Shown: positions 1,422-60,133 of the stretch, in pieces
Numbering within the stretch: the first letter of the stretch is position 1
Layout of the letters: each line of letters starts with the position of its first letter
NCBI GenBank assembly: GCA_051294375.1
Contig: CM119268.1
Span: forward strand, 9,355,074 to 9,419,073
Length of the DNA: 64,000 nt
Reading direction: 5' to 3'
Source: Paraspadella gotoi
Taxonomy: Eukaryota; Animalia; Chaetognatha
Notes under the pieces: model-generated
Database searches by the model: none
Told to the model about the DNA's origin: nothing
What the model saw: only the letters and a program-made list of their open reading frames with translations
Translations under genes and position numbers: made by a program

Positions 1422-4400
1422 CGCGTACGGTGGAGACAGTAGAGGGCGGTGGAATCGTCGTGGTTCTTCTCAAAACGGTTGACTCTCTCAAGCAGCTCTA
1501 CACGATGTCGATGGACGTTCACGATCGGTTCCGAACGGAATCGCATCGAGACGTCGTTTGTCGCTTCAATGAGCGACTCATCCTCTCTCTGGCGTCGTGC
1601 TCCAACGCGATCGTCGTCGACGACGAACTCAACATTCTCCCGCTCTCTACAATGGTGAGTGTTATTTTGTTAGTCATGTTAAGTAATACGTATATATGTA
1701 TACTAAAATACCTTCTCCCTACCGGTTTTCGTTTTAGGCGCTTCAGGTGACTCCCGTTACCCCTCGATCGGAGGAGGATCCCCTGCCGCCGAATGCGAAG
1801 GAGCTGAAGGAGTTGAAAGAGTCTCTCGCGGACACGCAACCTGTAGCCTCGTTGCTAAACCTCTGTCGGACTCTAGACCAGGCTAAGGTTCTGCTCAAAT
1901 TCGTGGAAGCTATCTCAGAGAAGACATTAAGGTTGGTATATGGTTGCTTCTGTAGTTTTTTGAAGAGGAGGATTATTAATATTCCTTTCTTCCTTATATT
2001 TTTTATATTTCTTCCTCCGTTATTCAGGTCGACCGTGACTTTGACGGCGGCGCGCGGGCGCGGCAAATCCGCCGCCCTCGGGATATCGATCGCTGCAGCC
2101 GTCGCCTTTGGTTATTCCAACATTTTCATAACATCTCCCTCTCCCGAGAATTTAAAAACCCTTCTCGAATTTGTGTTCAAAGGTTAGTTATTCAATGATT
2201 CGTGTGCCAATCAAGCAGCATCTGGGATCATGACACAAAACCCTGACACGCTCTTTCAACTTGATTTATTATAAATTCGGCGGCCTCGCATGTTTTCCAT
2301 TCATGGAATTATCTAGTTATCCGTCTCTTTTAACGATACGTTTATAAAAAGAAGAATTCCCTTGAGTCATAAATTACCATTTCAATTAGGTTTCGATGCT
2401 TTAAACTATGCGGAACACATCGATTACGATCTAATTCAATCGACGAATCCCGAATTCGAAAAGGCTATAGTCCGAGTCAACATTTTCAAGGATCATCGAC
2501 AAACGATTCAATATATTCATCCAAAAGACGTTGCCAAACTAAGTAAGTTCTTTTTTTTTATTGGGCGGAAATAGGAACTAATAATTTTTTTTCCCATTCT
2601 TCCAGGCCAGGCGGAACTTTTGGTCATCGACGAAGCAGCCGCGATTCCTCTGCCCCTTGTTAAGGCCTTACTCGGCCCGTATCTAGTTTTCATGGCGTCT
2701 ACCGTCAACGGCTATGAAGGCACCGGTCGATCTCTCTCTCTAAAACTCATTCAGCAACTAAGAACGCAGAATCACGCTACGGCCGAGAAAACGAAGGTAA
2801 GATATGATTGGAAATGCTATTGATAAACGACGTAATATTTAAACTCTTGTTGGAGCGTAATTCTCGTCAACGGACATTTAAAGACTCATGATTTATGATC
2901 ATTATTTTGTGATACCACTTTATTTTTATTATTATTATTATTATTATGATTATTATTTTCCCCACTTTACTTTTAGACCGATTCGTCGAAAAATCCCATG
3001 GGCCGGTCTCTTGCCGAGTTGACGCTCGATGAGTCGATTCGATATGCTCCAGGCGACCCCGTAGAAAAATGGCTCAACGACCTTCTTTGCTTGGACGTTA
3101 CTTCCGGGGTGGCACCGCTTTCCTCGGGTTGCCCGGCGCCCGACAACTGCGACCTTTATTTTGTCAACCGAGACACCCTTTTCTCGTAAGGACATAATTT
3201 TTTCTGGGCAATTTCAGTGTACTCTCGCAAAATTCTTATTATTATTCTTCGTCTTTTTTACACTTAGTTATCACCGTGCTTCAGAATCCTTTCTTCAGCG
3301 CCTAATGTCCATTTACGTGGCTGCCCATTACCGGAACACCCCCAATGACTTGCAAATGCTCTCCGACGCGCCAGCCCATCACTTATTTTGCCTTTTGGGT
3401 CCCATCGATCCCTCGAACAACTCTCTGCCCGAGATTCTTTGCGTGGTTCAGGTAAGGACTTGTTACTTTTATTTTGGAAGAGATATTTCACTAATTATTA
3501 TACCTGACCCAGGTTTGTATGGAGGGGGACATCTCCAAGTCTTCTTTAATGAATTCTCTTTCGCGGGGAAAACGAGCCGACGGCGATATGATTCCTTGGA
3601 CCGTCAGCCAACAGTTTCAAGATCCGGATTTTGCCGGACTCTCCGGTGCCAGGATTGTTAGGATCGCCACTCACCCCGACTATCAGGTCTTGAGAACGCG
3701 AAAAAATATATAAAATAATTTTGTTTATACAATTTTTTCACGTAATGTTAAATAAACAGCCAGACTCTTTTATTTCTTATTCTATTTTTTCTCCAGGGCA
3801 TGGGGTACGGCGCCAAGGCCGTTTCGCTCTTGCAGCTTTATTTCGAGGGAAAATTCCCTTGCCTTGCTGAAGATATCACTTCACCGCCTATCGATAATTC
3901 GTCTTCGGCCGAAGTCGATTTGCTCTCTGAGAAAATCGCCCCTCGGAAAACCTTGCCCCCTTTGTTGCTGAAGCTGGAAGAACGTCGTCCGGAGCGACTC
4001 GATTACCTCGGCGTCGCTTTCGGTCTAACTGAGCCACTATTAAAGTTTTGGCGTCGTGCTGGATTCAACACCGTCTACCTTCGCCAGACTGCCAACGAGC
4101 TCACGGGGGAACATTCCTGCATCATGCTTAAGGTACGTGATCTATTTTTTTTTCTTTTTCTTTTTGTCTCAACGACATTAATATTCAGGTTCTAGAAAAC
4201 TGCGTGGACGGCTCTTGGCTGCCCAAGTTCTTCGCCGACTTTTCCAAAAGATTCCTCGCTTTGCTTTCGTATCAATTCCGCTCCTTTACGCCAAAGTTGG
4301 CGCTCATGATTCTGCAGCAAAAAATGAACGAAGTTCCGACGACCGTCATGAGCAGGGAAGACATGGAAAGAGATTTTTCTGTCTACGACATCAAGCGACT

Positions 4401-5227
4401 AGATCTCTACGCGCAGAACATGGCCGACTACCACTTAGTTACCGATTTGTTGCCAGCGATTGCTAAGAAATATTTTATGAAGGAGCTGGGAATAGATCAG
4501 GTTAATTATTGAGGTTAAAAATCGTACTAATCGCTAATCAGATTATTTAACTTTCATATTTTTTTTTCAAAGGTGAGTGCTGTGCAGTGTGCCCTTCTGC
4601 TCGGCCTCGGTCTCCAACACAAGACGGTCGATGAACTAGAAAAGGAGTTAGACATTCCGGTATCTCAGCTTCTTGGTCTCTTTAATCGCCTCGTCCGAAA
4701 AATCGTGACCTGTATGAACCGAGTCCAGGAAAACGCTATCGCCATGGAGATAGGATTCGCCGATAACGCCAAAGACGAGTGAGGCTTTTTCCATTTTTTT
4801 TTTTCATTTTTACCTAATTTAATTAAACAACGAGGTTTGAATTTACTACATTTATCTTATTTGTTATAGTTTTGCGATAATTTTGTCTTGTATCTTCTGC
4901 AACAGGGCTGATCCCTCGTCGACGACCGTCTCCCAAACTCTGGACGACGAACTCAACGCCGGTGCCAAAGAGGAAGTCGCCAAGGCGGCGGCTCGCCTCA
5001 AAGCGCTTGAAGGAATCGACCTCACTCAGTTCGCTATCAAGGGTTCCGAGTCACAGTGGAACAAAGCGACTAAAGCGGGAAAAACAGTCAGCATCGTCAG
5101 CGTCAAGGGCGGCGCCCCTGAGGCCCGCGTTAAAAGAAAGAATGATGATGGCGATGGATCTGAAAAGACGAAAAAGAAGCAACTCTTGAAAACGAACAAG
5201 AAGAAAAGAAAATTCATCGAGAAGTGA
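1422..5227 (+). CDS. NAT10: RNA cytidine acetyltransferase NAT10/Kre33 (multi-exon; 5' exons lie upstream of the window)
   Basis: Spliced ORFs give ARTVETVEGGG, the P-loop TAARGRGKSAALG, the helicase motif VIDEAAAIPLP, GYEGTGRSL, the GNAT motif RIATHPDYQGMGYG and a Lys-rich tail ending at TGA 5225-5227. The first exon in the window follows the AG at 1420-1421. Confidence 0.95.
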
Positions 5228-5322: not shown

Positions 5323-6236
5323 ATGAGACCTTCCATGAGATTTACTGGGTTACATCTGAAACTATGGCGCAGCGACATTTCCCTTCCGGTGACTTCTACC
5401 TTTTCCCTTCGACCTCACTCGTCCGTCCCAGAAGCTCCGGTTTTAGAGGAAGTAGCCTCCGGTCCTGATCAGCGAGGCAAAGGACGTCATCGCGCCGACA
5501 AGTCCCTCGTTTCCAAAACTCTATTTTCTAAAGAATTCCAGGAATTGGATTCGATCAAAAAAAAGTCCTCTTTTAAAATCAAACCCGTGCCGAAACCCTC
5601 TTTCACTTTTGCCGCCTACGTCAATGAGTCCACTTTGCTGCAGAATTTCGTCAAACTCGGAGTGAATCTCGTCAAGTGGGAAAAGGGGACGATTCCCGAC
5701 GAAATCATGGGCCTCGACTTTGAAAGAGACGTCACCCCGGTGCTCTTTCATCTTCACGGCCTTGGAATCCCTGACGAGCAGCTGGGCAAGGTTCTCACTA
5801 AAAACCCTTATATTCTGATAAGTGGTGTCGGAAATTTGGAGGATCAAACTGATTATTTCGTCCGCAAAAAGTTTTCTCGGGAACAGTTGATCAACGTCGT
5901 GATCAAATGTCCGCAGTTGTTTAGCAGAAGCGTGGAGGCAATAGACGGTCGTTTGGGATATTTTCAGCAGACATTTGATTTGACAGGTGACTTAAATAAA
6001 TTATTCTTTTTTAATGTCAAATAAACTGTATTAATCTTTCTCACGCTTAGGGGACCAACTACGCGATTCCGTAACGATTTGTCCAGAGTTATTTCAAGCG
6101 AAACTCTCGATTTTAGCCAAGCTAAATTTTCATATGGCCAAGTCTTTGGGATTTAAACAAAAAGAGATGAGAGAATTGTTCATCGTTTGTCCCTCGGTAT
6201 TTTTGCTTCATCCCGATACCGTTGCGCAGAGGTAAC

Positions 6237-6287
<51 letters not shown>

Positions 6288-6569
6288 ACGTTAACATATT
6301 TAATCCTTTACAGATTCCATATTCTCCACAACACGATGGGAATTCCTCACCAAACTTTAGTTCGCTATCCTCTCTTGTTTCGCGTTCCGCCCTACTTGAT
6401 TCGTCAACGACACAAGTTTCTCTCGACGCTTGGGCGTGCTAACTACGATCCTCTCGACGAAAGTTACGTTACTTTAACCGCCTTTACCAACCACGGAGAT
6501 CAGAGCTTCGCCGAGAAGATTGCCGGAGTCAGTTATGACACTTATAAACAGTTTTTAAAAACTCAATAA
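5323..6569 (+). CDS. MTERF3: Mitochondrial transcription termination factor family protein (MTERF3-like), 3 exons
   Basis: AAYVNESTLLQNFVKLGVNL, LDFERDVTPVLFHLHGLG and a C-terminal RQRHKFLSTLGRANYDP...YKQFLK match the MTERF3 pattern. Arg/Ser-rich N-terminus resembles a mitochondrial presequence. Confidence 0.85.
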
Positions 6570-6717
6570 TTTGAACTTCTACCGGCTGTTTACTGTGATT
6601 TGCATTTTGCGTACCTCGCTGTTGTTTTCTTTGAATTTTAGTTGTTTAATTGCTTTTTACCATGAAATAGTTTGAACAGTTCCGTCAAATCGAGTTCCGA
6701 CTTAGCATTTTGTTAAA

Positions 6718-9700
6718 ATGTCAGTCGACGAAGTAAACAATATCAAGGTCGGCGTTCGGGTCCGGCCTTTTAACCAAAGAGAGCGAGACGCCCGCTCCGC
6801 CTGCGTCGTGTCCATGACGGGAAACTGCACGACCCTCACGAACCCCGAGTCCAAAGAAGAGAAGACCTTTGCCTTCGACTATTCCTATTGGTCCCACTCC
6901 GACTACGAGGAAAGCGAAAACGGAGTCTTGGTTCCCGTCGACGACAAATATGCGGACCAGAAAAAAGTTTTCGACGACCTCGGTCGTGGAATTTTGGACA
7001 ATGCTTGGGCTGGGTATCACGCCACCCTATTCGCTTACGGCCAAACCGGGGCCGGCAAGTCTTACTCGGTGGTCGGCTACGGAGCCAACAAGGGCATCGT
7101 TCCCATCGCCTGCGAAGAGCTCTTCAAGAAAACAACCGCCGAGTCCTCGAACGACAAATCTTTTCAAATTTCCTATTCGATGCTGGAAATATACAATGAG
7201 AATGTGCGGGACCTTTTGGCTTCTCAAAAGAAGGGAGTTCAACAGCATCTTAAAGTGCGCAATCATCCGACAAAAGGTTTTTTCGTCGAAGGACTCAAGG
7301 TGGTGCCCGTTGAAAATTACGAGCGCATAAAATCCCTCATGAATCAAGGAACGCTAAATCGCACAACAGCGGCGACGAATCTCAACGCGACCAGTAGTCG
7401 TTCTCACATGCTCATCCGCGTCATATTCAAGCAGGTCTTCCTTAACGAAAGGGGAGAGAGCACAACAAAGATCAGCGAGATCAACATGGTAGACCTTGCC
7501 GGTTCAGAGCGAAGCAACTCGGCTGGGACCAGCGGTGATCGACTGCGAGAAGGCTCGGCGATCAATCAGAGTCTTTTGACTTTGGGAAACGTGATTAGCG
7601 CCTTGGCCGAGCGAGCCCTGAAGAAAAAGGGTCTGGTGGTTCCGATTCCGTATCGCGATTCGGTGTTGACGAAACTGCTGCAGTCGGCGCTCGGGGGAAA
7701 CAGTAAAACCATTATGATCGCTGCTTTGAGTCCCGCCGCGATCAACTACGAAGAGTCGTTGTCTACCCTCCGCTTCGCCGATCGCGCCAAGAAGATTAAA
7801 AACAAGGCTGTCGTCAATGAATCGCCGACCGACCGCCTCATTCGCGAGTTAAAAGAAGAAAACCAGCGGTTGTTGGCTCAGTTAGGCAGAGCCGCCGGGA
7901 CGCAGATCGTTGAAGGCGACACTATCGACGCTCGGAGGCTTTTGGAAGAGAACCAGCGTCAGATGGAAGACATGGAAAAGTCTTGGCAACAAAAACTCGA
8001 CGAGGCGAGGCGAGAATGGGAGAAAAAGCAGGAAGAGATTCTCAAGAGGGAAGAGAGCAACGGGAAGGCTCTCTGCACGGCGCATCCTTACTTGCGCAAC
8101 GTCAACGAGGATGCGCAGCTGAGCGGTGTCATCAACGAGGCCGTCCCTCTCGGGGATCAAATCTTGGGCAAAGGCGGTGGCGATGTGGCAGTCAAGATCG
8201 TTGTCCGTGGATTGGGCGTGCTGCAACAACACGCCTTGCTCTGCAACGACGGCGTCAAGGTCACCATTGCACCTTTCGTTCCGCAGGCCAAAATAATGAT
8301 TAACGGAATTGGCGTCGATGAGAGAAAAGAATTGCAACACCTAGACCGAGTCAAGCTCGGTTCCAACAACCTGTTTCTCTACGTCGGTTTTCCCCACGAG
8401 AGAGACGCTAAATCAGACGAAGAAAAGATCGCCACTTACGATCACGACTATTTTCAATCCGAACTAGCGCGCGGCACCGAGCTGTTGTTTCAAAGGTCCC
8501 ACTCCAGTCTTATGCGAGACGTGACGTTCATGGACTTTCTACAGCTCTTGCCTCAAGTCACCGAGGTCAACTCGATGAGCGAGGAACTGGCGAAAAAAAT
8601 CCCTTCGGCCACCGTCAAATTTGATCCGCTGATTAAGAACCTGACCACCTGCGACGACGTCGGAAACGAAAAAACCAAGTCCATCTTGGTGAGGATGACT
8701 AATTCCAAGACCAAACAGGTCTGGGTTTGGTCAAAAGGAAAGTTCATTAATCGGAAGTACATCATCGAAGAGATCTACAACAAATTCTTGGAGGGGCAGG
8801 AAATCGTTCTGGAGAAAAAAACGGATCCATTTTGGGATCCTCCAGAAGATATTTTTCTCGGTTCTTGTCATGCATGGCTGCAGCCTCTGGCCTATCAAGT
8901 TGAGATCGACGATCAACTCGACATGCACGGTCACCACGGCGACGACATCGCTCTGGCCACTCTGCAAATACATCCTTGCGATGCAGCAGGGAAGCTTCTT
9001 GGAGAGGAATCGGCCGTCTTGGAACCTTCGGAGTTACTGGACGAGCGAGTCGACTTTATGTTGCGTATTCCTCAGGTTGTCGGCGTTCGTTGGGTCCAAG
9101 AAGACAAAAAATCTCGCGGATTCTTCTTCTCCTTCAAATTTTTCGATTTGCCCAAAGTTTTTCGAACTAAAACGATTTGGGGAAAGAATTCAACTCGACT
9201 GGGTTTCAAAAAGCAGTTTACCATCAAGAGCGTCAACGACGACTTTCTAGAATATCTCCAGACTCACGCCCTTGTGCTGGAATTATGGGGTACGCAGAGC
9301 GGCGGAGACGTCCGCGATGAGGAAAGCAGCAGCCCTTGCGAAGAGGCCGAGAAGGAAACTACTCTCAGCGAGGGAAAAGCTCCAAGGTTAACCCGCCAAA
9401 ACTCGGACCGCATGATGATTTCCCGTGCGAGCGCCAGGAGCGCGGTGGGTTTCCATTTAGTAAACCAAAGGGAAGAATGGGAATACGAGACTCTCGAAGC
9501 GGAGAAGGAAGAATTGACAAAGCGAGTGGAGGAGTTGGAAAAGGAAGTGGACCGATTGACTCAAGAAAACGTCGCGGTGAAAAGAAAAGCGAAGAAGGAA
9601 AAGCGTTTTCAAACAGACTCGAACGCCTCCAGCCGGCGTTCCTCGGCGGGCGCCGTGGAAATACCGACGGGCGATACGTCGGTTTTGGTGGATTCAAATC

Positions 9701-10047
9701 GAGTCGAGAACGCCGTCGCCGCCTCCCAAGATGCGCCTCCTTCAGTAGCCGAGGACGCTTCGAAGCAGAGATCTGAGACGGAAAAGGCCGCCTTGAAGAC
9801 GCTGAAAAAATTTTTCATCGACATGAAGAACGTCGACGATCTGATGAAAACTCTGGCTACGACTTTGCGAGACTTTGCGACTTTACGAGAGGAGGAAGAA
9901 AAAGAGGATGCATTGGTTCCGAAGTTAGAAAGCGCGGCCTCTGCTGTATCGGGAATCAACCAGCAGATGAATACCACTTTGACCAAAATGAGGGCGAAAA
10001 TGAAAATTATATTTAATTTAGTAGGCAAGAGAGAAAAAGAAGAGTAA
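6718..10047 (+). CDS. KIF28: Kinesin-3 family motor, KIF28/KLP-6-like (single exon, 1109 aa)
   Basis: Motor motifs GQTGAGKS, SSRSH and VDLAGSE, followed by coiled coil, FHA-like region, WSKGKFINR...DPFWDP segment and C2-like region. Confidence 0.85.
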   Translation: MSVDEVNNIKVGVRVRPFNQRERDARSACVVSMTGNCTTLTNPESKEEKTFAFDYSYWSHSDYEESENGVLVPVDDKYADQKKVFDDLGRGILDNAWAGYHATLFAYGQTGAGKSYSVVGYGANKGIVPIACEELFKKTTAESSNDKSFQISYSMLEIYNENVRDLLASQKKGVQQHLKVRNHPTKGFFVEGLKVVPVENYERIKSLMNQGTLNRTTAATNLNATSSRSHMLIRVIFKQVFLNERGESTTKISEINMVDLAGSERSNSAGTSGDRLREGSAINQSLLTLGNVISALAERALKKKGLVVPIPYRDSVLTKLLQSALGGNSKTIMIAALSPAAINYEESLSTLRFADRAKKIKNKAVVNESPTDRLIRELKEENQRLLAQLGRAAGTQIVEGDTIDARRLLEENQRQMEDMEKSWQQKLDEARREWEKKQEEILKREESNGKALCTAHPYLRNVNEDAQLSGVINEAVPLGDQILGKGGGDVAVKIVVRGLGVLQQHALLCNDGVKVTIAPFVPQAKIMINGIGVDERKELQHLDRVKLGSNNLFLYVGFPHERDAKSDEEKIATYDHDYFQSELARGTELLFQRSHSSLMRDVTFMDFLQLLPQVTEVNSMSEELAKKIPSATVKFDPLIKNLTTCDDVGNEKTKSILVRMTNSKTKQVWVWSKGKFINRKYIIEEIYNKFLEGQEIVLEKKTDPFWDPPEDIFLGSCHAWLQPLAYQVEIDDQLDMHGHHGDDIALATLQIHPCDAAGKLLGEESAVLEPSELLDERVDFMLRIPQVVGVRWVQEDKKSRGFFFSFKFFDLPKVFRTKTIWGKNSTRLGFKKQFTIKSVNDDFLEYLQTHALVLELWGTQSGGDVRDEESSSPCEEAEKETTLSEGKAPRLTRQNSDRMMISRASARSAVGFHLVNQREEWEYETLEAEKEELTKRVEELEKEVDRLTQENVAVKRKAKKEKRFQTDSNASSRRSSAGAVEIPTGDTSVLVDSNRVENAVAASQDAPPSVAEDASKQRSETEKAALKTLKKFFIDMKNVDDLMKTLATTLRDFATLREEEEKEDALVPKLESAASAVSGINQQMNTTLTKMRAKMKIIFNLVGKREKEE

Positions 10048-10525
10048 GTGTTTTCTTCTCTACACTCTACAGTTACGATTTTATTTATATTTAGTATATC
10101 AGTCCTTCTCAAAATTCTTGCCAATCATTTTTAAAGGCAGTGCTCTAATTTACTTTAATTTTACAGTTTTTTATTCTTAATTTTTGAGTATGTATATGCC
10201 TTGGAGTTGATTAAGAAAAGTGGACAAAGTTGAATCTCTTCGCTGAGCTTAAAGTTTTTAGCGATGCTTCGTAAAATCATATTTGCTACGTATGTAGCGC
10301 TATCGATTTTTAACATAATTTTACACGATAATATTGTAATCTCCAGATTGCCTTTTACACTAGATATGCAACTTTTACGATCGTATACAATTTTTATATT
10401 CCGATAATATAGCTTTTTACGCCATTTACTTTGCCTGAAGTGCAGGCCAAGTCGCTAAATATGTTTGGTCATGCCCGGCCGTTATCAGTTGTCTAGTCAT
10501 ATTTTCCTTACACAGTGCACACTTA

Positions 10526-11117
10526 ACATCTGACACATAATTATTGAGACGGCTTCCGGGGCCTGTAGACGGCGACCAGGACGCCGTAGAAAGCTCCTTT
10601 TTTTTTTAATGAAGCCTAGAATGTTTGTCTACCAAACTGTGAATTTTTTTTTTATCGGCCCACGCGTTTTCAAGATGCAGTCAATTTCCTCTGAAGCGTG
10701 CCGTCAAGTCTTTGCCCAATTCTACCAAAATCATGAACAAGAAGGAGCAGCATTTACTTTACAGTATTTTTTGAAGCTAAATGTTAGCCGTCCATCTATT
10801 TATCGCGTAATACAAAGAGTAAAGTCTGGAGATACTATCAAGCACAAAAAAGGCGCAGGGCGGCCAAGAAAACTCACGGCAAGACAGTCGCGTACTATCG
10901 TGAAAGGAATGGAAAATAAAGTTGTGTTTTCTACGTGAAAGCTGTCCCTACGCCACATTTCACAAGAAAATCGTGACTTTTTTGATTCAACTTGTTAGTC
11001 TGTATTTAGTTAATGTTATTAGTATTTAAAAATTATATTTTGTATTTATATTTACAATAAAATGTTATAAACTTTAACACATTCAATCTTTTGTCTCAAT
11101 AATTATGTGTCAGATGT
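10526..11117 (+). mobile_element. Internally deleted Tc1/mariner DNA transposon
   Basis: Perfect 25-bp TIRs ACATCTGACACATAATTATTGAGAC (10526-10550) and its reverse complement (11093-11117), flanked by TA on both sides. ORF 10609-10938 encodes an HTH-like transposase N-terminus (LNVSRPSIYRVIQR...GAGRPRKLT) with no DDE domain. Confidence 0.92.
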
Positions 11118-11201
11118 TAGAATTTTTGATAACAAAAAAAATTTTTCCTAATCATTTGATCTCAAATATTTTTTTACCGATATAAAGAACCAAATTTAAT
11201 T

Positions 11202-12312
11202 ATGTCCGCGAAACTCGCTGACTTGGCCGGCCGGTTGTTATCCGGCGCCGGTGGAGTGGGGACGAAACTGTTGTTGGCTTCAGGCCTTGCCGGTTACGGA
11301 GTCTACAACTCTGTTTACACAGTAGATGGTGGTCATCGCTCCATAATTTTCTCCCGCCTCGGAGGCGTCCAACCCGGTGTTTACGCCGAGGGACTCCATT
11401 TTCGGATTCCGTGGCTTCAGTGGCCCATCATTTACGACATTCGCGCTCGACCGCGCAAGATCTCCTCGCCCACCGGGAGCAAGGACCTCCAAATGGTCAA
11501 TATTTCGTTAAGAGTGTTGTCCAGGCCGGACCAAACATTCCTTCCGCAGGTACTTTGCTTGAAAATAAACTAATCAATTAGCGGAAAAATATGTATTCTC
11601 ATCATCTCATCAGATTTTTCAACTCCTCGGCCCGGACTTTGACGAACGCGTGCTGCCTTCAATCTGCAACGAAGTCCTCAAAAGCGTCGTGGCAAAATTC
11701 AACGCGTCGCAGTTGATCACCCAGCGTCAGCAAGTTTCGCTGCTCATTCGCAAGGAGTTAACGGACCGAGCACGCGATTTCAACATCATCCTAGACGACG
11801 TCTCCATTACGGAGCTTACCTTCGGCGCTCAGTACACCGCCGCCGTCGAGGCAAAGCAGGTGGCGCAGCAAGACGCCCAGCGCGCCACTTTCATCGTCGA
11901 TCGGGCCAAACAGGAACGTCTGGGGAAAATTGTACAGGCTGAGGGAGAAGCCAAGGCCGCCACCCTCATTGGCGAAGCCATTCAGGACAATCCCGGATAC
12001 CTCAAGCTACGGAAGATTAGAGCCGCGCAAAATATAGCGAGGTAGTGAAATATTGCTGGCCAATTTATAAACTAAATTAAGGCTATTGTATGATTTTATC
12101 TAATTCGCTCCGTCTTTCCCAGAACCATCTCCCAGTCGCAGAACCGCGTGTATCTCCAAGCGAACAATCTCCTCCTCAATCTGGCCGGAAATGAATTCGA
12201 TTCAAAGTTCGACGGACGTTCAGAAGCGACGCGAGCCCGTGCAGAGATGGGCGGAAGCCATTCCGCCTCAATGGCCTGCGCGGAAGAAGCCGTGTTTTCC
12301 AATAAGGCCTAG
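11202..12312 (+). CDS. PHB2: Prohibitin-2, 3 exons
   Basis: [61 protein letters not shown] and a last exon [11 protein letters not shown]. Stop TAG at 12310-12312. Confidence 0.96.
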
Positions 12313-12671: not shown

Positions 12672-13237
12672 ATGAGCAAAATGAATTTTTTTCGACGATC
12701 TTCCGCCTGCGTATTTTGCGACGTCGTTTGTAACCCTGGATCAAAAGCTCTTCACGAAACTTCCTCTGTTCTCGCCATTGAGGATATTCGCCCTGCAACC
12801 GAACATCATTATCTCGTCATTCCTAAGCAGCATCTTGCCGACGCCAAGGCCTTAGGGGCCGAGCACTTACCTCTCTTTCGCGAGATGGTCGACGTTGCCC
12901 GTGAATTGGTCGAAAAACGCGTTGATGAAGGGGAAAGGTAATATAGCGACATTTTTTTTTTGACCCATAATTCGGGTTCGAAAAATAGCCAATGGCTGAA
13001 CTGCGAAAGTGGAAGGAGTTAGGAGCAAAAATAAGGGATAGAATTATCCCTAATATCTGATTTAGGTCAGACGTTGTGATGGGCTGTACGTGGCCCCCTT
13101 TCACTACGGTGTCCCATTTACATCTCCATGTGTTATCGCCAGCTTCTGCGATAAAAGGACTTTTTGGTTACTTTTCTAAATCATGGTGGTTTGTGTCGCC
13201 AGAGGCAATAATCGATCGATTGCAAAGCATGAATTAG
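12672..13237 (+). CDS. HINT3: Histidine triad nucleotide-binding protein, HINT3-like, 2 exons
   Basis: CVFCD, EDIRPATEHHYLVIPKQH and exon 2 WPPFTTVSHLHLHVLSP (HxHxH triad). Confidence 0.8.
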
Positions 13238-47300: not shown

Positions 47301-49745
47301 TGATGGGCGGAGTGTTGGAGGTGAAAAAGGAAGACGAGTTACGGAAGGACATCCCTGTCCCGCTATTCATGCATGGTTCTCTTGCAAAACCGGAAGAGGA
47401 GTGGACCGAGGAGGAAATCCGAGCTGCGAAGGAGTATGAGAGAAAGTGAGTTGATATGACTGGAGAAGTATCAGTTAGTTCTTCTCTTCTCTTTATAACA
47501 TTTTTCTAACATACACGCCGTTCAGGTGCAAGGAACTCGCCGAAGAACGGGAAAAGTACCGAAAGCAACTTGAGACAGAACTGAAAAAGATCGAAGGCTC
47601 GGTGGCCGAGAGCGTGCGCCAGTTCGACGAGCTGCTTACCCGCCTTTTCTTGCGCAAGGTCAAAACGGAAACTGTCATTTGTCAGGAGGAGCTTAAGATC
47701 TTGCGAATGCAGCGCCAGTTGACCAAAGAGGATGAATTCGATGCGCGCGAAGCCGAGTTGATGCTCATGAAAGAAGAGCTCAAGGCAAAGAAGTTGCTGG
47801 CGACTGCCAAAGCCACCGAAGCAAGGAGAGCGGGTCCGTTTTTCTCTTGTTATTATGTTCAAAGCTTTGATAGGATTATTTCAATGTTATCTTCGGTTTC
47901 AGTCGAAGCCTTCCGCGATCAGTACGATATCCTAGTCGCCGAGGACAAGGTTATGGACAAGTCGTTTCGTCGAGAATTCGCCGACATACCTTCGTCCCTC
48001 GTGGACCAGTTGAATAAATTGTTCCGAAGGCGCCCGCGTGGAAAAGGGGTAACTACTTTGCCAATGTTTATAGGGTGAACTTTTTTTTCACGTCTCCCCA
48101 CTTCCCATTTTTCCGGCGCATAGATCGGCTTTGGTGCAGGATCTCCCGAATTCGAGGAAGAGACTTTGCGGTCTTCAGAAGCGAATCCTTACAAGCGGCG
48201 ACCCACAACAGCTGAAACAAATCTTCGTTGTCGCCAAGCGCTGGAAGTCGCCTTGAAAGAGATGGACGAGGCCCAATACGCCCCAGAAGGTGAACCTTCA
48301 TAGAAAGAACTTTTTTAGGATCAATTTGTATCACCTTTGTTTCTTGTGCAGCTTGCGTTCCTGACGTTTGGGCGAGGTTGTGCCAGGTTCGTCGCTCGAA
48401 AATTATGTCCGAGCAGCAGATGAAAGCGAAGGCGATGACGCTGGCAGATATGACCGCCTTCGCTACGCGGCGGTACGAAGAGGACGAGGCCATAAAAAAT
48501 GAAATCGAGGATATCAGCGCCGGCATCACCAGGTTCTAATAGCGAAATTATAATTTCATTAGTTTAGACAGACGTTTGGAAACCGGTTATTAATGACTTT
48601 AAAAACGAGGAGGGGCGGGGGTGGAGGGATTAATCCCTGATTTTGGTGGCGCTCTCTCCCTCTCTTTTTTGTTTGCTCTAACTTTTAACATGATCATTTA
48701 GCCCTGAAGAAGATCTGTCCAATGGATCGAAATATTGGTCATAAAACAAATTTTACCTGTACTCCCATGTGTAATCTTTAATTAATTCATATCAATTCTT
48801 TTTTTTTTTTTACAACAGAGTGGCGGAACACAAGGCAAATTTTTTGCAAAACCTCCAAGTTCAATTGATTGTCAAGCAGGGCCAGGTGGAATTGAATCTC
48901 TTGGTGCCGATATACGACTTCTCCGGCGCCATACTCGTTCATCGCGGAGTCGTGGAAGATCTTAACTCCGCCATCCGCCAACTTGGCCAACAAAAGATCG
49001 AATCAATGCTTGAAAGTCAAGAATTCCGCAAGGGCATCGTTCAGCTAGAGTGGGCGCGCCGCAAAGCCCAGATGAAGATGGACGATTTGCACAGCATGGC
49101 CAGAGACATTCAGGTTAGATTTTGCTGACTTTTGCCCAATAACGTTTGCGCTTGATTATAACGTAGATCACTTGTTTCAATTTCAGATGCTTAAAGTCAC
49201 GCGGGATATTCAAGCCTTTTTGGCATCGGAGAACTACGAAAGCAAAAAAGTGCAGGAGGTGACAATGATGGAGAATACGATGGTCATGCAAGACAAAAGG
49301 CACAGGAAAAACTTTAAAGAGAAACAGAAGCGTTTGATGGAAATGCAGGGCCAGATTGAAAGTAAGTACAGTGCCGGTGTCATTTTAAAGATGATTAATA
49401 TTTTTTCAGACGCAGTGAAATTATTAAATTTGCTTTTAAACTCGGTGACAGATGTTTAAATCATGATTCTACTCAACAGCGCGAACCCGAGAAAACGATT
49501 CATTAATCCGGAATTTGGATCGCCTCAACGTCGTCGTCAGTGAGCGGCGACATGTAGTCGAGGAGCGCTCCGTAAGAAAGGAGGGTCGCGTCAGCGGAGC
49601 GGAGCTGCGCATGAAGGACATCGTCCACCGGCGTCGATTGGTCGAAATGGCTAAAGCTCAGGCGCAGGAAGTGGCTCTGCTGAGAGCTGAAGTCGAGAGG
49701 TTGCGAATGAGAACCTTTCCGGCTCTTGTTCAAGTGCAACAATGA
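41305..49745 (+). CDS. CFAP43: Cilia- and flagella-associated protein 43 (WD40 plus coiled coil), many exons
   Basis: N-terminal WD repeats, [36 protein letters not shown] and a C-terminal [24 protein letters not shown]. Some internal exon borders are uncertain. Confidence 0.9.
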
Positions 49746-50628: not shown

Positions 50629-51915
50629 ATGACTCGACTTATTGAAGCGTGTAAAAAACTTTTCGGAAAGGAAGGGCTCTACGACGTCTTGGGAATTGGG
50701 AAAGATGCATCAGGTATTTTTTTTTTAATTTTCAAATTCTCCTTTTCGTTTATGGTTTCGTTTATGGTTCCTATTAATCTATTTCTCATCAGCGTCCCAA
50801 GTGAAGAAATCCTACTACCGGATGTCCCTTCGAGTTCATCCGGATCGCGTTTCCGACGACGAAAAAGAAAGCGCGACCGCTAAGTTTCAAGCGCTTAGCC
50901 AAGTTTACGGCGTGCTCTCCGATTCGGAGGCCAGGTTGGAAATTACCGAGTTTACATCGTAACTGTATTAGATGATGACAAAAAACAACCTCACCGTCTT
51001 GCAGAAAAATTTACGACGAGACTGGAGTCGTGGACGACGACGAAGCGACGTCATCTTCCCGCGACTGGGCCGCCCACTGGCGCCGTATGTTCCCCAATGT
51101 CACGACCGACATGATCAACAACTTTTACGCCTCCTACCGAGGATCAAAGGAGGAGACGGACGATCTGAAGAACTACTACCGCCGATTCGGCGGCGACATG
51201 GAAATGATTCTCGAATGGATGATTCACGAGACGGAGGTCGACGCGATTCGGATTCAGCGTCTCCTCGAAGTGAGCCTAATGTTGTCAATTTGTTTGACGA
51301 TTTGTTATTTTACTTTGTTACTTACTTTACTTCACTTTGTTATATTTACTTCTATTGATTTATACCGCTTTCGATCTCCCAGCGGCTCATCGAAGGCGGC
51401 GAGTTGCAGAAGACATCTCGATTCACGCGGACCAAAGTGACGAAGCGTAAACAGTCGATTCGGCGGAAGCGCGCCGCCGACGAGGCCGCCGAGGCTGAAG
51501 ACATGCTTAGGCAAATTAAGAAGAAACACCGAATGTCGGAGGATGCCAGGTAATTGAAATTTTCGGGGAATTTTTTTATATTTGTAGTTTTACCAGTTGC
51601 CTTGTTTTGATATTTTTCTATTTTTTTTCCTATTTTTAAATCTTAATTTTATGCCCTATTCTCAGTTTGGAGTCGCTACTGCGAAAGAGAGCGGAGGAGA
51701 GGGAGTCGCTCAACGGGAGCTTCTTGGAAGCGTTAGAGGCCAAGTACGGAGGCGGTGCTCGGGGAGGTCGAGACGACGACGACGACGGCGAAGACGAAAT
51801 TGACGAAGACGACGGAAACAAAAAAGGCAAACCAAAGAAAACTAAAGCACCACCAGCGAATAAAGGAGACAATCGTCGTCGCGTCCTCAAAGCCAAAAGA
51901 AAGAGACGCACCTAG
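50629..51915 (+). CDS. DNAJC9: DnaJ homolog subfamily C member 9, multi-exon
   Basis: J-domain LYDVLGI...VHPDR...KFQAL, YRGSKEETDDLKNYY and FLEALEAKYG. Confidence 0.9.
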
Positions 51916-52893: not shown

Positions 52894-54690
52894 ATGGTGT
52901 ATAAGAAATGCCCCGGCTGCGGAGAGTCGAAGGTTCCCGTCGCGCGAAAGAACTGTCCAGGATGTGGATACAACTACACCAAAAAAGAGGCGGAGGAGGA
53001 GGAAACCGCTGAAAAAAGAGCGGATTCGCCGAAAAAGGGAAGGGTAAGGGATTATGCCACGTTCTATTGAAAGATCAATACCTAACTCCACACTTCCTAT
53101 CCAACATCCTCACCTCAGTCCTCCCCCCGTACGGAAGAGAAGGCGTCTTCATCTCCTGCCAAGGAACCTCTCGGCGAGGGCGATGTGTCGCCGACCAGAG
53201 ATTCCCAAGTCAGATCAACTCCACTTCGCTCCTCCGTCGATACTAAGAAAAAGGAAAAGGAGAGATCTTCACCCAGCGGGGACGACAGCGGAGAGGAACA
53301 TTCCGTAAAGGTCTGCTATGGAAGGAGAACTAACTAGTTGGTGTGATTTATGTGGCTTAATTTTACTTTCGCAGACCGGGGTTGGGGCGAGGTTTAGGGT
53401 GGTTTAAAAGTGATTAGGGTTAGGGTAATTAAGTAAAAAGTTAAAAATTTTTTTAAAAAATAAGTATTTTTAAATGTTTTTTAAAAGACGCCAAAACCCC
53501 GGTCGGCGAAAGTAAAATCTTTTAGTTTTTAGTCGCCGCGAAGAAGAGGATAAAGAAAATATGAGACGCTTTTCTTTTTTCTGAGTTCACAATCACATTC
53601 ATAATTTTTTTTTTTTTCCTTTTTCACCATTCTCCCCGATCTTCATCAGAATCGACCTAAACGCAATGTGCGAAAGCCGCTGTTGCTGCGACACGAAATG
53701 GCCGTGGCCGCCGCCGTCGCCGCCGAAACTTCTTCCCTCAAGTCAGTTACAATGTCTGAATAATTCAACTCCTTATTGACCCAGTTTCCCTTTCTTTCAG
53801 ATCTCGCACGTGGAAATCGACTTCCGCGAAGCGCGGAGCCCGCGGAACTCTTAACGTGAGAGGAAAGAGAAGTCTTCCATCCGCAGGTCCATTATTCACG
53901 TTTGTCGCACGCTTCTACGTAAGGCACACCTTTTGGTTAATAATTATTTACAACGTATTTTTCCAAGGCCGTGGCCGAGTCGCTCCGGATGACCCGCCGA
54001 CCACCGTTCGCACCCTTCTTTCGCAACAACGCCGGCCTCGTGGCCGCCCCCGCGTTTGCCAAGGGGGCGGGGTAGGTGGCAGTGGCGGGTCCAGCGCCGC
54101 GACGATTGGCCGCAGCGGACATAAACCGGGACTGCGGGCCTCTCACACGACTCCGCCGACGAAACAGTGGAGCGAACGAGACGACGACGACGATGACGAC
54201 TACGATTACGGGCTCACGCTCCATCACAAAAAACAGATCAGGTTTTTTTTTTACTTCCCCCCCCCCCCGAGTGAAAGTAAAGGGTTTGCAATTTAGTCGT
54301 GCGCGCCTTTCGATTAAGCGAATCCTTGGATCAGACCAAGGGGCAAAGAACTCGGGAACTGATTCCCCGACGCGCCGCCAACACGTCCGTCGCACTGTCA
54401 TCCGATCAGCTCCAAGGATCGCCGGGCGACGTCAACGATTCTAATTTGTCCGATTCCAATTCGCCGAACAGTTCTAAGGTGCTTCTTGTTAATTTCTGGA
54501 AACGACCACATTAGGCTAATATTCCGTGTAGTCTTTAATTTTAACTTGGCCTTTCGTTTGACAGTCGGCGTCACCTTGTCCGGCAGAGGATGTTTATAAC
54601 AATCTTCCTCCGTACCGCATGCTACAATATGGCATCGTTCTCGGGGACATCAATCGAAAGTTTCTTAACCAAAGCTTTAAGCCGATGTGA
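52894..54690 (+). CDS. C16orf87: UPF0547/C16orf87-like zinc-ribbon protein, multi-exon
   Basis: N-terminal KKCPGCGESKVPVARKNCPGCGY, AT-hook-like RPRGRPR and a C-terminal DVYNNLPP...YGIVLGDINRKFLNQ. The start codon (a possible upstream exon at 52730) and middle exons are uncertain. Confidence 0.75.
53360..53518. mobile_element. Small MITE-like element containing TTAGGG units
   Basis: About 24-bp inverted ends ATTTTACTTTCGCAGACCGGGGTT / AACCCCGGTCGGCGAAAGTAAAAT (1 mismatch), with internal TTAGGG and TTAGGGTTAGGG. No clear TSD. Confidence 0.6.
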
Positions 54691-55121: not shown

Positions 55122-56153
55122 ATGATCGCGTTGAGGACATCGCGACTTTTCACCAAACGCTGGTCGGCCGTGCTGCTCGTAGTATTCGTCGTAATTGCTA
55201 GTCTCCCTTGGTCGCTCGCGGAGCAGAAGACTATGGGACAACAGCTTCTCGCTCCGGACGACACATCGCCGCGGGATGTTCGCAGTCCCTCCGCCGTCGC
55301 TCATATTCCCGGATTGGAGCAGGATTCCTTCATAGAGTCGCTAAAAATCAATCAGGTCTATTGTTGTTTTGTTATATTTTTTTTTAGATATTTTTTCATC
55401 AATGAGATTTAACTATGTCTTTCGATATTGCCGCAGGGTTTTATCCACGCTTTCGTGGCTTCGATCTCCGTAATTATTGTCTCCGAGCTCGGAGACAAGA
55501 CCTTCTTCATTGCAGCCATCATGGCCATGAAGCACGCCCGATCCACGGTCTTCGGTGGAGCCATCACCGCCCTCGGACTCATGACCCTACTTTCCGCGCT
55601 CGGCGGCACCCTGGTCACCAAAGTCATCCCCCGCTCCTACACCTACTACCTATCGGCAGTGCTTTTCCTCGTTTTTGGGGTCAAAATGCTGAAGGAGGGG
55701 TACGAGATGGCGCCCGACGAGGGACAAGAAGAGTACGAGGAGGTTCAGGCCGAGCTTCGGCGGCGGGACGAAGAAGTGGATAAGGACCCGGAGACGGGGG
55801 GCGGGGTCGGCGCCGCGTCCTCCGGAGTGGGCGTATCACCGGCGGTGTCTTCCTCGACGACCCGCTTCCTGCGCCGTTTTTTCCCTCGAATCTTCCTCCA
55901 GTCGTTGACGTTGACTTTTCTCGCCGAGTGGGGCGACCGATCACAAATCGCCACCGTCGTCCTGGCGGCTCGGGAGGATCTTACCGGCGTCGTCGTTGGA
56001 GGAACGATCGGCCACGCCCTCTGTACGGGACTTGCGGTCCTCGGCGGTCGTATGATCGCCCAGCGAATCTCCGTTCGTTCCGTAACTCTGGTGGGCGGCG
56101 TCGTGTTCGTCTTCTTCGCTCTCTCGGCGTTCCTCTTCAATCCCAGCGATTGA
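55122..56153 (+). CDS. TMEM165: GDT1 family Ca2+/Mn2+ exchanger TMEM165, 2 exons
   Basis: Signal peptide and two family motifs, ELGDKTF and EWGDRSQ. Confidence 0.95.
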
Positions 56154-57233: not shown

Positions 57234-60133
57234 ATGGAGGTTCCTCAGACTGTGATTCAGACGAGAACGACCGGCCGCGGCACCGCTGGCGGTGCGAATC
57301 CCACCCACTCCTCCGAGGGGCGGCCGCCGGGAGGGCAGCGTCTCGTCTCTTTCGTGGATTCTTCGAACGACGTCGGCGTCGCCGCAGCCGTCGGACACGA
57401 GCCCTCTTCTCATCATCATCTTAATCCGCTCTTCGACTTTCCGGAAAAATGTTCCGTCGAAAAATCTGAGTCGGAGACTTTGGACTATCCCCTTCACCCG
57501 GTCAAACAGACCGAAGGCACCAAGCCTGCGTTGGCAAAGCGGCAATCGACCAAACAGCTACTTCGCCCCAAAAATTCGCTGGAACATGAGGTTAGCGCTC
57601 GCGACACCGTGGAGAAGATCGCCATCCGCTATGGAACCACGCCGTCGGCCATCTGCAAGATGAACAAGATGGCCTCGCGCATGATTTTTCCGGGACAGGT
57701 GCTCTTCGTTCCAGATCCCGACGCGCCGCCTCCGTCTCCCTCGCCGACCAAGGAAGCTACTTCGCCTCCGCCGACGACCTCATCCGGCGGTGACATTATG
57801 TTCCCTGCAGCCGCCACCTCAACCGCCGTGGATGATAACTTACCCAAGATCCTACCCTCGCTCCCGACTCTTTCTTCCGTGGCGGAGGGCGTGAGCGAGG
57901 TCGGCAAGGATGCGGGCGCCACGGCCACTTCTCAAATCTCCAACCTCTTTTCTAAACTTAACCCGGCGACGCACATCTCCCGAAGCTCCTTTCGCAAAAA
58001 GCGCGAGAAGCGAGGCAGCGGCGGTAGCGATGACGAGTCCGGCATGGCATCGTCGGGCGATATCGACCCCGACCAGGAGTGTCTAGAGAGGTTTATAAAA
58101 CTCAGTGCCAAGCACATTACTGACGGGCGCGGCGTCGTAGGTGGCACATTGCTGGTAACTCCTAACGCCGTGATGTTTGACCCGGATGTTATGGATCCGC
58201 TGGTGCGAGAGAACGGCCCTGAGATGTTCGGCATGATCGCGCCTATGGAGTGTATCATGAGCTCCGCCATTTACCATGACATATCCCCAATGACCGTCGA
58301 TGGGACGCCGGGAGAGCGTGACTCGGCCGCCGTCTATCATGACAAAACGTGTCCGCTCTATGAGAAGCAGGGACGAGGGAGATGCAGCGAGGACCAAGGC
58401 GCTGAACCGCCTCAAGGAAATGAGGAGGAAGGGTCCGATTCGAATTTCACCGACGACCGGAAGCGACCGTCGCCCGAAGTTTCTCCCGAGCAGCGATTCT
58501 CCGTCGCTCTCGCCGAAGGACTTTTGCGTCATGAAAAGCGTCGGCGTCGAGTTCCAGGTCGCAGCGCCACTCTGCCAGAACAACAGGAGGCGCCGAGCGC
58601 TACGCCAGAGCGACGGTGTCGATGTTCATCAAGCTCCGACGAGCGGCAACGCAGTCCAGAGAAATCCCAGGCCACCGCCCCGGCGTCTCTGGAGGCGGAT
58701 TTCGACGCCGCCTTCGAAACGCCTACGAACGACGAGCAAAAGAAGATGCCGTTGATCGAATCCTCTCCCGAAGCTTCGGCGAAGGTTCCGTTGCTTGCTG
58801 CAGTTCACGAAATATTGGGTGAGGCCGACGACGACTCATTTCAGCAACCATGCGACGAGTGTCCGGAGGACTCTGCCACTCCTTCAGCTAGCTCCTCGAA
58901 AGTTTTGCTCAGCACCGAATTCTCTTCCTCCGAGCCCCCAATCGCCTGCTTAACGACGACGTACCCGGGTCTCGGCGCCGGCGATAGAAGCGATCTCGAA
59001 CCCAGCGGCCTGGAACTGGCCAAACCGGAGAATTCCTCTCTGGAGACGAAAGACGTCGAAGATGAAGCTTTCGTCGTCGTCGAAAATATGGGTCCGGAGG
59101 AGGCCCAGCATCTATTCGTTCCTATAGAAACGCTTTTGCCGAAGCCTCAGGACCCAACGGTAGGGGTTTGGCAAGAACCCCCACTTTATCTCTGTCTGCG
59201 CGTCGGACAACCGCTCAACAAAAAAATCCCTCTTACCGGACCGATCGCCGCTTACGCGAGAAAGAAAAAACGTCCGGAATACTGGTTCTCAATTCCAAAA
59301 GAGAGGTGAGGATCGTGTGGAGATTGCTGGATTTATTGGAGACTTTGAAGTGTCGCAAAATCTATTCATTCCTCTTTTTTTTTTTTTATTCTCTCAGAGC
59401 ACCTCATTTGTACGCCTTTTTTCTTCAATGGACGCCGGAAGTCTATGATAATCAGGATTTAGAACAGCAACAGGCCTTCGTCCTTCTGGGAAACGACGAC
59501 GACGAGGACGAATTCATCCGACAGCTCCCCGTCTCCAAGCAGTGGGAGATCGTCAACACGGACGAGATCGAGCGTCGCCGTTCGCTCCTTCTCGAAGAAT
59601 CCTATCCCCCGCCCGAGCTTCTCGGCGTCTCCCAGATTCTTGACGCGGATTTGGCGAAGCAACTTAACTTCCACCTTCCTGCACGCACTGTCGGTTATCC
59701 GTGGTCTCTGACCTTTTCCACCGAAGAACACGGATTCTCCTTAAGTTCCCTCTACAGAAAGATGGCCGCCCTTCCCGAGGGACCGGTCCTGCTCTTCATT
59801 CAAGACACTCAAGGACGCGTGTTCGGTGCGATGTCTTCTTGCGCCTTTGTCGTCAGCGATCATTTCTATGGAAACGGGGAAATGTTTCTTTTTTCGCGGG
59901 CAGATTCCGGGGATTTGCGGTGCTACCCATGGTCCGGCGAAAATAATTTCTTTATTAAGGGCAACAAAGAGAGCCTGGCCATTGGCGCTGGTGAGGGCTT
60001 GTTTGGACTTTGGTTGGACGAGGATTTGTACCATGGCCGGAGTCACCCATGCCCAACCTTTGCCAATGAGACCCTCTCGACCAAAGAGGACTTTGTCATC
60101 AAAATTCTCGAAATTTGGACCTTTTTGGAGTAA
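57234..60133 (+). CDS. OXR1: OXR1/NCOA7 (mustard)-family LysM-GRAM-TLDc protein, 2 exons
   Basis: LysM (DTVEKIAIRYGTTPSAICKMN...IFPGQVLFVP), GRAM-like TDGRGVVGGTLLVTPNAVMFDP, PEYWFSIP and TLDc FSTEEHGFSL...FYGNGEMFLF...FGLWLD. Confidence 0.92.

Follow-up and report, generated by a model that had tools for sequence, protein, structure and literature searches.

Twenty-two unrelated genes lie head to tail, all on the + strand, at 1422..60133 of the window, the 64,000-nucleotide stretch of DNA analyzed here. The tight core of this array, 14 genes from PHB2 to GINS4, or 18 from NAT10 to CFAP43 after subtraction of two transposons, is probably copied into a single long polycistronic RNA or into a few abutting ones, which are likely resolved by spliced-leader (SL) trans-splicing. 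Copying as shared transcripts is considered likely because RNA crosses or reaches most of the gaps compared. A spliced leader on the array mRNAs is suggested.

Gene content and layout

Genes were assigned by Pfam and open reading frame (ORF) checks of the window. The array opens with NAT10 (1422..5227; PF05127, PF13718), a MTERF3-like gene (5323..6569; PF02536), and the intronless kinesin gene KIF28 (6718..10047; Pfam match, RNA contig 6671-10553). The core follows with PHB2 (11202..12312; Pfam match, RNA contig), a HINT3-like gene with an RNA-confirmed intron (12672..13237; PF11969, PF01230), a MRPL48-like gene (13308..13953; PF00338) and MRPS9 (14032..15474; PF00380), both within a bridging contig, and POLG (15660..20614; Pfam match, RNA contig). 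Next are an intronless tandem-repeat galectin (20857..21867; Pfam match, identity confirmed by Atlas search), a beta-sarcoglycan-like gene (22129..23409; PF04790), MRPS16 (23692..24301) and the E3 ligase BRE1 (RNF20/40; 24447..30051), the last two with Pfam matches and RNA contigs. They precede a SMIM13-like small protein of 68 aa (30497..30703; PF15938), ELP6 (30721..31703; Pfam match and protein search, within a bridging contig), the F-box/kelch FBXO42-like gene (31938..34427) and PSMD4 (Rpn10; 34595..39405), both with Pfam matches and RNA contigs, and GINS4/SLD5 (39713..40535; PF05916), which ends the core. CFAP43 (41305..49745; PF25828), DNAJC9 (50629..51915; PF23302), C16orf87/UPF0547 (52894..54690; PF10571), TMEM165/GDT1 (55122..56153; Pfam match and tree) and an OXR1/NCOA7-type LysM-TLDc gene (57234..60133; PF01476, PF07534) complete the array.

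Pfam matches consistent with the assignments were found for 22/22 genes, all on the + strand and some below the curated cut-off, including the PSMD4 VWA domain (E=4e-4). For all array genes except KIF28, TMEM165, and ELP6, orthologue labels finer than the Pfam family are ones we take to apply. The array is not made up of tandem paralogues. The ELP6 protein search returned distant matches throughout, chiefly bird and mammal. Exact-sequence look-ups of three window proteins gave no match. No further NAT10 exon was found within 1-1421; the 5′ exons of this gene are outside the window. Of the 114 other ORFs checked in the spacers, the flanks and the large introns, one matched Pfam, as a transposase-type HTH. 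Rfam and tRNA matches in the window were both zero.

The first-pass annotation had called 22 co-oriented, non-nested genes; the Pfam matches bear this out, and all 21 of its stop-to-ATG spacer lengths agree with ours. Its orientation probability of 2^-21 was recomputed as 4.8e-7, or 5.7e-6 when a nested antisense RhoGAP gene is included, and about 0.005 runs of 22 co-oriented genes are expected by chance per 20,000 genes. Median spacer length is 261 bp, with 16 of the 21 spacers at ≤445 bp and five at 769-1154 bp. An operon run criterion of spacers ≤500 bp, as applied to Oikopleura, yields runs of 3, 14, and 2 genes, the run of 14 being the core. With the two transposons subtracted, all spacers from NAT10 to CFAP43 are ≤558 bp, which extends the stretch to 18 genes. 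The CFAP43/DNAJC9, DNAJC9/C16orf87, and TMEM165/OXR1 spacers still measure 883-1080 bp after this removal elsewhere. Among the five spacers at the 3′ end of the array, four have lengths of 769-1080 bp and carry poly(A)-type hexamers.

The element in the KIF28/PHB2 spacer is a non-autonomous DNA transposon (10524..11119) with ~28-bp inverted repeats. Its presence was noted earlier with a length of 592 bp; the inverted repeats give 596 bp. A repeat element in the GINS4/CFAP43 spacer (40595..41026) has a second copy near 63519. The RhoGAP gene (35099..36191, − strand; PF00620) lies antisense within the PSMD4 intron 34952-36516 and has a 286-aa ORF and four introns spliced in an RNA contig; it requires a promoter inside the array.

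RNA contigs, spacer signals and a candidate leader

Contigs of run X1 (one run of one study) were compared with 14 of the 21 junctions, from MTERF3/KIF28 to FBXO42/PSMD4. X1 was taken as RNA on the single basis of its GT..AG joints, at which + strand introns are skipped; one contig set comprises 11 records. Runs X2 and X3 contributed two short records each. X1 contigs are unstranded assemblies, so that a two-gene contig does not prove a single transcript, and their ends are neither proven poly(A) sites nor proven caps. RNA confirmed 24 + strand cis introns with a median of 78 nt.

Single spliced contigs bridge five of the 14 compared junctions. A contig of 4644 nt extends from HINT3 exon 2 across MRPL48 and MRPS9 and into POLG (span rebuilt from record coordinates), and a 3453-nt contig spans SMIM13-ELP6-FBXO42. 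At five further junctions, the upstream RNA stops 0-28 nt short of the next acceptor or contig start. The POLG contig ends at 20765, coinciding with AG 20765-20766, the top-scoring acceptor of that spacer. The galectin contig ends at 22034, 14 nt upstream of AG 22047-22048, and the BRE1 contig at 30383, 28 nt upstream of AG 30410-30411. The beta-sarcoglycan contig spans ~22039 to 23627 by depth arithmetic, which assumes no hidden records, and its end meets the MRPS16 contig start at 23627; T-run length variants could alternatively account for its start and end. The FBXO42 contig ends near 34509, and the next acceptor is AG 34534-34535. Neither AATAAA nor ATTAAA occurs in the 40 nt before any of these five ends. 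At one junction, KIF28/PHB2, the upstream RNA enters the transposon and ends 30 nt into it. Together, these three groups account for 11 of the 14 compared junctions. Contig cover is absent at 20766-20917 and 30384-30504; such gaps and depth differences between contigs were set aside as evidence. Loose contig ends at 29449, 30704, and 34532 were dropped as probable short chance matches, and one at 34501 was read as a T-run variant.

Acceptor-like sites in 20 spacers exceeded shuffles weakly (p=0.06). The 16 short spacers showed no AATAAA depletion against shuffles (4 seen, 3.5 expected), and no 5- or 6-mer was enriched beyond shuffles across the 21 spacers. T exceeds A on the + strand in 20/21 spacers. 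All five long spacers contain AATAAA or ATTAAA, and their T skew (0.02-0.13) is similar to the downstream background (0.075). Good acceptor-like sites with no strong donor upstream are present at TMEM165, DNAJC9, and OXR1. No good acceptor is found in the HINT3/MRPL48 spacer (score -1.9). The 17-nt SMIM13/ELP6 spacer lacks an AG and is crossed by the bridging contig; with a spacer of this length and no acceptor, the pair is probably bicistronic.

Leader-like starts were seen at five of the 14 gene starts compared (KIF28, PHB2, beta-sarcoglycan, MRPS16, and PSMD4), among the loose contig ends listed (10 of 87 in one contig set, 6 of 8 in the other). The KIF28 contig starts immediately 3′ of AG 6669-6670. 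The PHB2 contig aligns from 11188, immediately 3′ of an AG lying 68 nt past the transposon, and is preceded by five unaligned letters; AG frequency before ATGs is 4%. At PSMD4, the 5′ contig begins at 34531, which is 5 nt upstream of the acceptor junction 34535/34536. Leader letters are visible once among the ends listed, at MRPS16, where 10 non-genomic letters, ATTTTATTAA, precede the alignment from 23627 as a candidate leader tail. This tail was not found on the + strand of the window. It agrees with the 3′ end of chaetognath SL2.0 at 8/10 positions, an agreement reached by 0.5% of 6843 AT-rich window 10-mers. The beta-sarcoglycan start at ~22039 is the point where the MRPS16 tail would cease matching. 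The MRPS16 junction is preceded by CG, not AG, so a leader there would have to end in G, unlike the KIF28 and PHB2 starts, which are compatible solely with a non-G end. A full-length MRPS16-type tail at PHB2 would align from 11181; 11188 was observed. No leader was visible, among the ends listed, at the five downstream starts inside bridging contigs. A reverse-strand copy of the tail at 37620 was rejected as an SL gene, being part of an inverted repeat that lacks a GT donor. Searching the literature for the tail combined with the term 'spliced leader' gave no match.

Weighing the readings

The first-pass annotation had proposed one operon, or a few abutting ones, closer to kinetoplastid directional clusters than to typical animal operons. 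The contigs support operon-like co-transcription, at 10 of the 14 compared junctions; they do not establish a single 59-kb unit, and a unit of all 22 genes is doubted because the RNA comparison stops before the last six spacers, four of which are long. The kinetoplastid likeness is weak, given the RNA-confirmed cis introns and the spliced antisense gene inside the array. Transcription of all 22 or more genes from one upstream promoter, as in a kinetoplastid-like directional cluster, is distinctly unlikely: orientation is unbroken for 59 kb, spacers up to CFAP43 are short after transposon removal, and the acceptor-like sites of TMEM165, DNAJC9, and OXR1 lack strong upstream donors, but the three spacers of 883-1080 bp, the hexamers and background-like T skew of the long spacers, the end of the RNA comparison before the last six junctions and RhoGAP all count against it. 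Separate promoters for every gene, with overlapping or read-through UTRs and neither operon nor leader, are very unlikely. Overlapping UTRs can yield bridging contigs, the leader evidence and acceptor enrichment are thin, and RhoGAP indicates that promoters are possible inside other genes here. Separate promoters nevertheless leave unexplained the 22 unrelated same-strand genes, the 17-95 bp spacers, the RNA ends at acceptors and the non-genomic letters at gene starts.

The least probable of the readings weighed is that the genes, though co-transcribed, remain mostly together on mature polycistronic mRNAs. Their ORFs would then be reached by leaky scanning or by re-initiation, as happens in green algae, and leader splicing would play little or no part. 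Five spacers are crossed by fully spliced contigs without a visible leader, the SMIM13/ELP6 and HINT3/MRPL48 spacers lack an AG and a good acceptor, respectively, and the upstream ORFs SMIM13 and HINT3 are both short; yet contigs break near acceptors at five junctions, and several starts are leader-like. A fourth ORF on one mRNA is hard to translate by scanning, which makes POLG, as the fourth ORF, a poor fit.

In the preferred reading, the tight core would give rise to a single long polycistronic RNA or to a few that abut. A leader, short, AT-rich and ending in TTAA(A/G), would be spliced to an AG shortly 5′ of each downstream ATG, and the upstream 3′ end would be made at or beside that acceptor with no AATAAA, in the manner of operons in Ciona and chaetognaths. 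Expression levels of each gene would be determined post-transcriptionally. SMIM13-ELP6 would be the exception, probably remaining a bicistronic mRNA. Promoters of their own could drive the four genes at the end of the array, DNAJC9 to OXR1. A bolder version is unlikely: a single RNA polymerase II unit with 18 to 22 genes or more, over 48-59 kb or longer, leader-spliced at near-zero gaps with at least one bicistron and mainly post-transcriptional control. If true, it would be roughly double the size of the longest animal operon that our literature search turned up, and would mix housekeeping with cilia and muscle genes and tolerate transposons and an antisense gene.

Comparison with known systems and significance

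Published systems are described here from the accessible parts of the cited papers. Chaetognath operons, in Spadella cephaloptera (PMC2481426) and Paraspadella gotoi (PMC12460157), share with the array same-strand housekeeping genes and, as far as contig ends can show it, only a few bases from an upstream 3′ end to the acceptor that follows. For chaetognaths, published figures place 18% of genes in operons and describe a gap of 3 nt (PMC2481426, PMC12460157). Their leaders, like the candidate tail, are AT-rich and end near TTAAA; all those listed end in A, whereas the MRPS16 junction has G (PMC2481426, PMC12460157). The longest published P. gotoi operon has nine genes, including ribosomal, ubiquitin, and proteasome genes, against 14 here by the 500-bp rule and 22 co-oriented; the core matches it in gene classes (MRPS16, BRE1, and PSMD4) and may overlap it (PMC12460157).

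In Ciona intestinalis, the upstream 3′ end falls on the downstream acceptor, most such ends have no AAT(U)AAA within 40 nt, and unresolved dicistronic cDNAs occur (PMC1488885). At five junctions of the array, upstream contigs likewise end at or near downstream acceptors without AATAAA, but these gaps of 0-28 nt come from contig ends, whereas the Ciona comparison concerns mapped sites (PMC1488885). Ciona operons reach 6-7 genes (PMC7986045). The array host is not a tunicate: in a quick tree, KIF28 fell outside tunicates, vertebrates, ambulacrarians, and molluscs (26 of 120 matches included). TMEM165 grouped in a clade marked 99 with nine environmental proteins and no member of a named phylum (32 of 120 matches included). 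The host is likely a chaetognath (arrow worm). A metagenome scan found no close TMEM165 relative (best 63% among the best 80 of 332), and inspection by eye of the first 16 metagenome TMEM165 loci showed no leader shared by their 5′ ends.

Operons of Oikopleura dioica, Macrostomum lignano, and Caenorhabditis elegans resemble the array in their co-oriented, functionally loose housekeeping genes and short spacers, and reach 11 genes in tunicates, 9 in Macrostomum, and 8 in C. elegans (PMC11067885, PMC4122922, PMC8629364). The C. elegans SL2-type gap of ~100 nt with a shared cis-element was not found in the array, where contig-end gaps are 0-28 nt and no 5- or 6-mer is enriched. Kinetoplastid clusters are not known to contain a separately transcribed opposite-strand gene, unlike the array with its spliced RhoGAP, and their genes are nearly intron-free, whereas array genes carry many cis introns. 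Cluster organization is genome-wide in kinetoplastids, and the array is known here from one window. Both are long runs of unrelated same-strand genes, and the array RNAs are likely matured as in these clusters, with leader trans-splicing and 3′ end formation coupled (PMC11735809, PMC11613528). SMIM13-ELP6, if bicistronic, would resemble green-algal polycistronic mRNAs and the SNURF-SNRPN type, with a short upstream ORF and a second gene close by on one spliced RNA, a type applicable to at most one or two array junctions (PMC7896298). No report of a SMIM13-ELP6 bicistron was evident among the papers listed.

Animal operons are reported mostly with 2-3 genes and maxima of 8-11 (PMC12460157, PMC11067885, PMC4122922, PMC8629364). 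None above 11 genes was found in our literature search, which largely covered papers outside subscription. If one operon, the 14-gene core would exceed these maxima. Operon lengths are suggested to be undercounted where annotation fuses neighbors or the cut-off is 250 bp. The array supplies exact candidate sites for a coupling of 3′ end formation with trans-splicing. A unit of 14-22 genes, if true, would mean that animals can leave many unrelated genes to post-transcriptional control, including likely tissue-restricted genes such as CFAP43 and sarcoglycan.

A run of co-oriented genes

The whole window was read, its ORFs were listed, and genes were assigned by Pfam family. The first-pass annotation had placed 22 genes on the + strand at 1422–60133; they run from NAT10 to OXR1. 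This array of co-oriented genes is a real feature: a fitting Pfam family was found for all 22, and the stop-to-ATG spacers agree in length with the values first reported (21 of 21). The genes are non-paralogous. The strand run, as had been argued, is not chance (p = 4.8e-7; 5.7e-6 once a 23rd gene, RhoGAP, is counted). RhoGAP (35099–36191, − strand) lies inside a PSMD4 intron and has GC-AG donors in two of four introns. Its RNA contig (34924–36545) spans the whole PSMD4 intron and reaches the flanking PSMD4 exons on both sides. A Pfam search for hidden genes among 114 other ORFs from spacers, large introns and flanks gave a single match, to a transposase-type HTH; Rfam and tRNA searches of the window gave none.

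Genes were grouped using a 500-bp spacer limit, as for Oikopleura (available part of PMC11067885). This yielded runs of three (NAT10–KIF28), 14 (PHB2–GINS4, the core) and two genes. Discounting two transposons joined NAT10 to CFAP43, 18 genes. The + strand shows T skew in 20/21 spacers, and spacer acceptor scores exceed those of shuffles weakly (p = 0.06). Neither AATAAA depletion nor a common motif was found in the spacers.

RNA contigs at junctions and gene starts

Sequencing run X1 contains 76% of sampled words from 11100–21000 and is RNA, because its contigs skip GT..AG introns. Its contigs were compared with the window at 14 of the 21 junctions, from MTERF3/KIF28 to FBXO42/PSMD4. They are unstranded assemblies from one run, in which a bridge is not equivalent to a single molecule, nor a contig end to a mapped poly(A) site. 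Single spliced contigs bridge 5/14 junctions. A 4,644-nt contig runs from HINT3 exon 2 through MRPL48 and MRPS9 to POLG (two pieces, span rebuilt from coordinates), and a 3,453-nt contig covers SMIM13-ELP6-FBXO42, with a length that agrees with the exon sum. At five further junctions the upstream contig end adjoins the downstream acceptor or contig start. Upstream ends lie at 20765 (POLG), 22034 (galectin), 30383 (BRE1), about 34509 (FBXO42) and, by an inferred position, about 23627 (sarcoglycan); none of these five has AATAAA or ATTAAA in the preceding 40 nt. At KIF28/PHB2, upstream RNA enters a transposon by 30 nt, and 68 nt separate the transposon's far end from the PHB2 acceptor. MTERF3/KIF28, PHB2/HINT3 and MRPS16/BRE1 were counted neither as bridged nor as abutting (3/14).

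In X1 contigs, possible signs of a joined leader are seen at 5 of the 14 gene starts. The KIF28 contig has its first base directly after an AG. In the PHB2 contig the aligned part also starts directly behind an AG and is preceded by 5 extra letters. The PSMD4 contig starts 5 nt before its AG junction, a start that is firm because the 11 records there are largely accounted for. The sarcoglycan contig start, put at 22039 by depth arithmetic, could be mimicked by T-run variants. The MRPS16 contig bears ATTTTATTAA, which is absent from the window + strand and matches the end of chaetognath SL2.0 at 8/10 positions (PMC2481426, Table 3, from the portion available), a level reached by 0.5% of AT-rich window 10-mers. 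The candidate MRPS16 leader junction (23612–23628) follows a T14 tract and CG, not AG, making it a candidate non-canonical or polymorphic acceptor. It requires a G-ending leader, whereas KIF28 and PHB2 are compatible only with a non-G end. Leader letters were sought among 10 of the 87 loose ends listed for the contig set that gave KIF28, PHB2 and MRPS16. Among the remaining starts, 5/14 lie inside bridged contigs without a leader, 2/14 are without contig cover and 2/14 were counted in none of these classes. The five leader-like starts suggest leader trans-splicing of array genes.

Repeats and single genes

A repeat in the POLG intron (18340–18900) matches dozens of variant RNA contigs of very high summed depth and is probably an abundant transcribed repeat family. 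The BRE1 intron carries nearly identical direct repeats of ~255 bp (25377–25631 and 25854–26108, 477 bp apart) that look like the termini of a small, non-autonomous element of LTR type; by eye, further stretches of similar sequence appear to lie near 36780 and 37900. PSMD4 intron 3 has a long, AT-rich, MITE-like inverted repeat (37430–37721), and the last MTERF3 intron a run of about 45 T (6240–6284). A stretch inside the first NAT10 intron (1–600) is GC-richer with short broken frames, was without a match in a Pfam search, and is possibly a decayed mobile element.

KIF28 (6718–10047, 3.3 kb) and galectin (20857–21867) are intronless; their neighbors bear introns. Both are possibly, as speculation, retrocopies expressed through landing in an operon. 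KIF28 best matches are slow-evolving bilaterians, up to 55%. A quick tree, in which ecdysozoan, rotifer and flatworm KIF28 are absent, places it among protostomes and outside tunicates, vertebrates, ambulacrarians and molluscs. TMEM165 has ten environmental relatives at 78–84%, followed by named animals at about 65%; nine of these relatives and the window protein form a 99* clade. One member of the relatives' cluster has the source label 'merc', which we take to be a marine eukaryote catalogue. A marine protostome lineage that lacks annotated reference proteins, taken together with the SL2.0-like tail, makes a chaetognath the fairly likely source. SMIM13 and ELP6 (30497–30721) are 17 nt apart from stop to start, nearly all A, and are candidates for a mature bicistronic mRNA; a 39-nt CT-rich loose end lies nearby at 30704. 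Before the OXR1 coding region, the sequence at 56998–57231 holds a probable untranslated first exon of OXR1, a 63-nt intron and an upstream ORF, so the true TMEM165/OXR1 gap would be shorter.

Transcription of the array and comparison with known operons

The core is probably transcribed as one polycistronic RNA or a few abutting ones. Cis introns are removed normally in X1 contigs. By analogy with known operons, a leader would be trans-spliced at an AG shortly upstream of each ATG, with the 3′ end of the preceding mRNA made at or near this AG. In the available text of PMC1488885, Ciona operons have the upstream 3′ end at or near the downstream acceptor, and that of PMC2481426 gives a 3-nt gap in a Spadella operon. 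SMIM13-ELP6 would be an exception, probably staying bicistronic because its 17-nt spacer has no AG.

The giant operon first proposed is partly supported: RNA contigs at core junctions look operon-like (five bridged and five abutting of 14). At the array tail, four of the last five spacers measure 769–1080 bp; all five long spacers of the array contain poly(A)-type hexamers, with skew at background level. One unit of 18–22 or more genes is unlikely, and a single 22-gene unit distinctly so. Separate promoters with overlapping gene ends, from which bridging contigs can also arise, are improbable beside the leader-like starts. Mainly polycistronic mRNAs left uncut would leave bridged starts without a leader, as at five starts, and are set against contig ends adjoining acceptors; they are similarly improbable. 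The proposed likeness to kinetoplastid clusters was not borne out, because the array has 24 RNA-confirmed introns and a spliced antisense RhoGAP, which needs its own promoter.

In the parts of the literature available, the longest operons have eight genes in C. elegans, nine in Macrostomum, 6–7 in Ciona (PMC7986045), up to 11 in tunicates and nine in Paraspadella gotoi (PMC12460157). The nine-gene P. gotoi operon is described there with ribosomal, ubiquitin and proteasome genes, which the 14-gene core would likewise hold. With a single gene model for each of the two bridged blocks, the core would come to nine genes; as a lead only, it may already be annotated as that published operon. The array would behave as operons of the Ciona or chaetognath type do, in which intercistronic DNA is scarce; it is a candidate member of that class, and what is new about it is its length.
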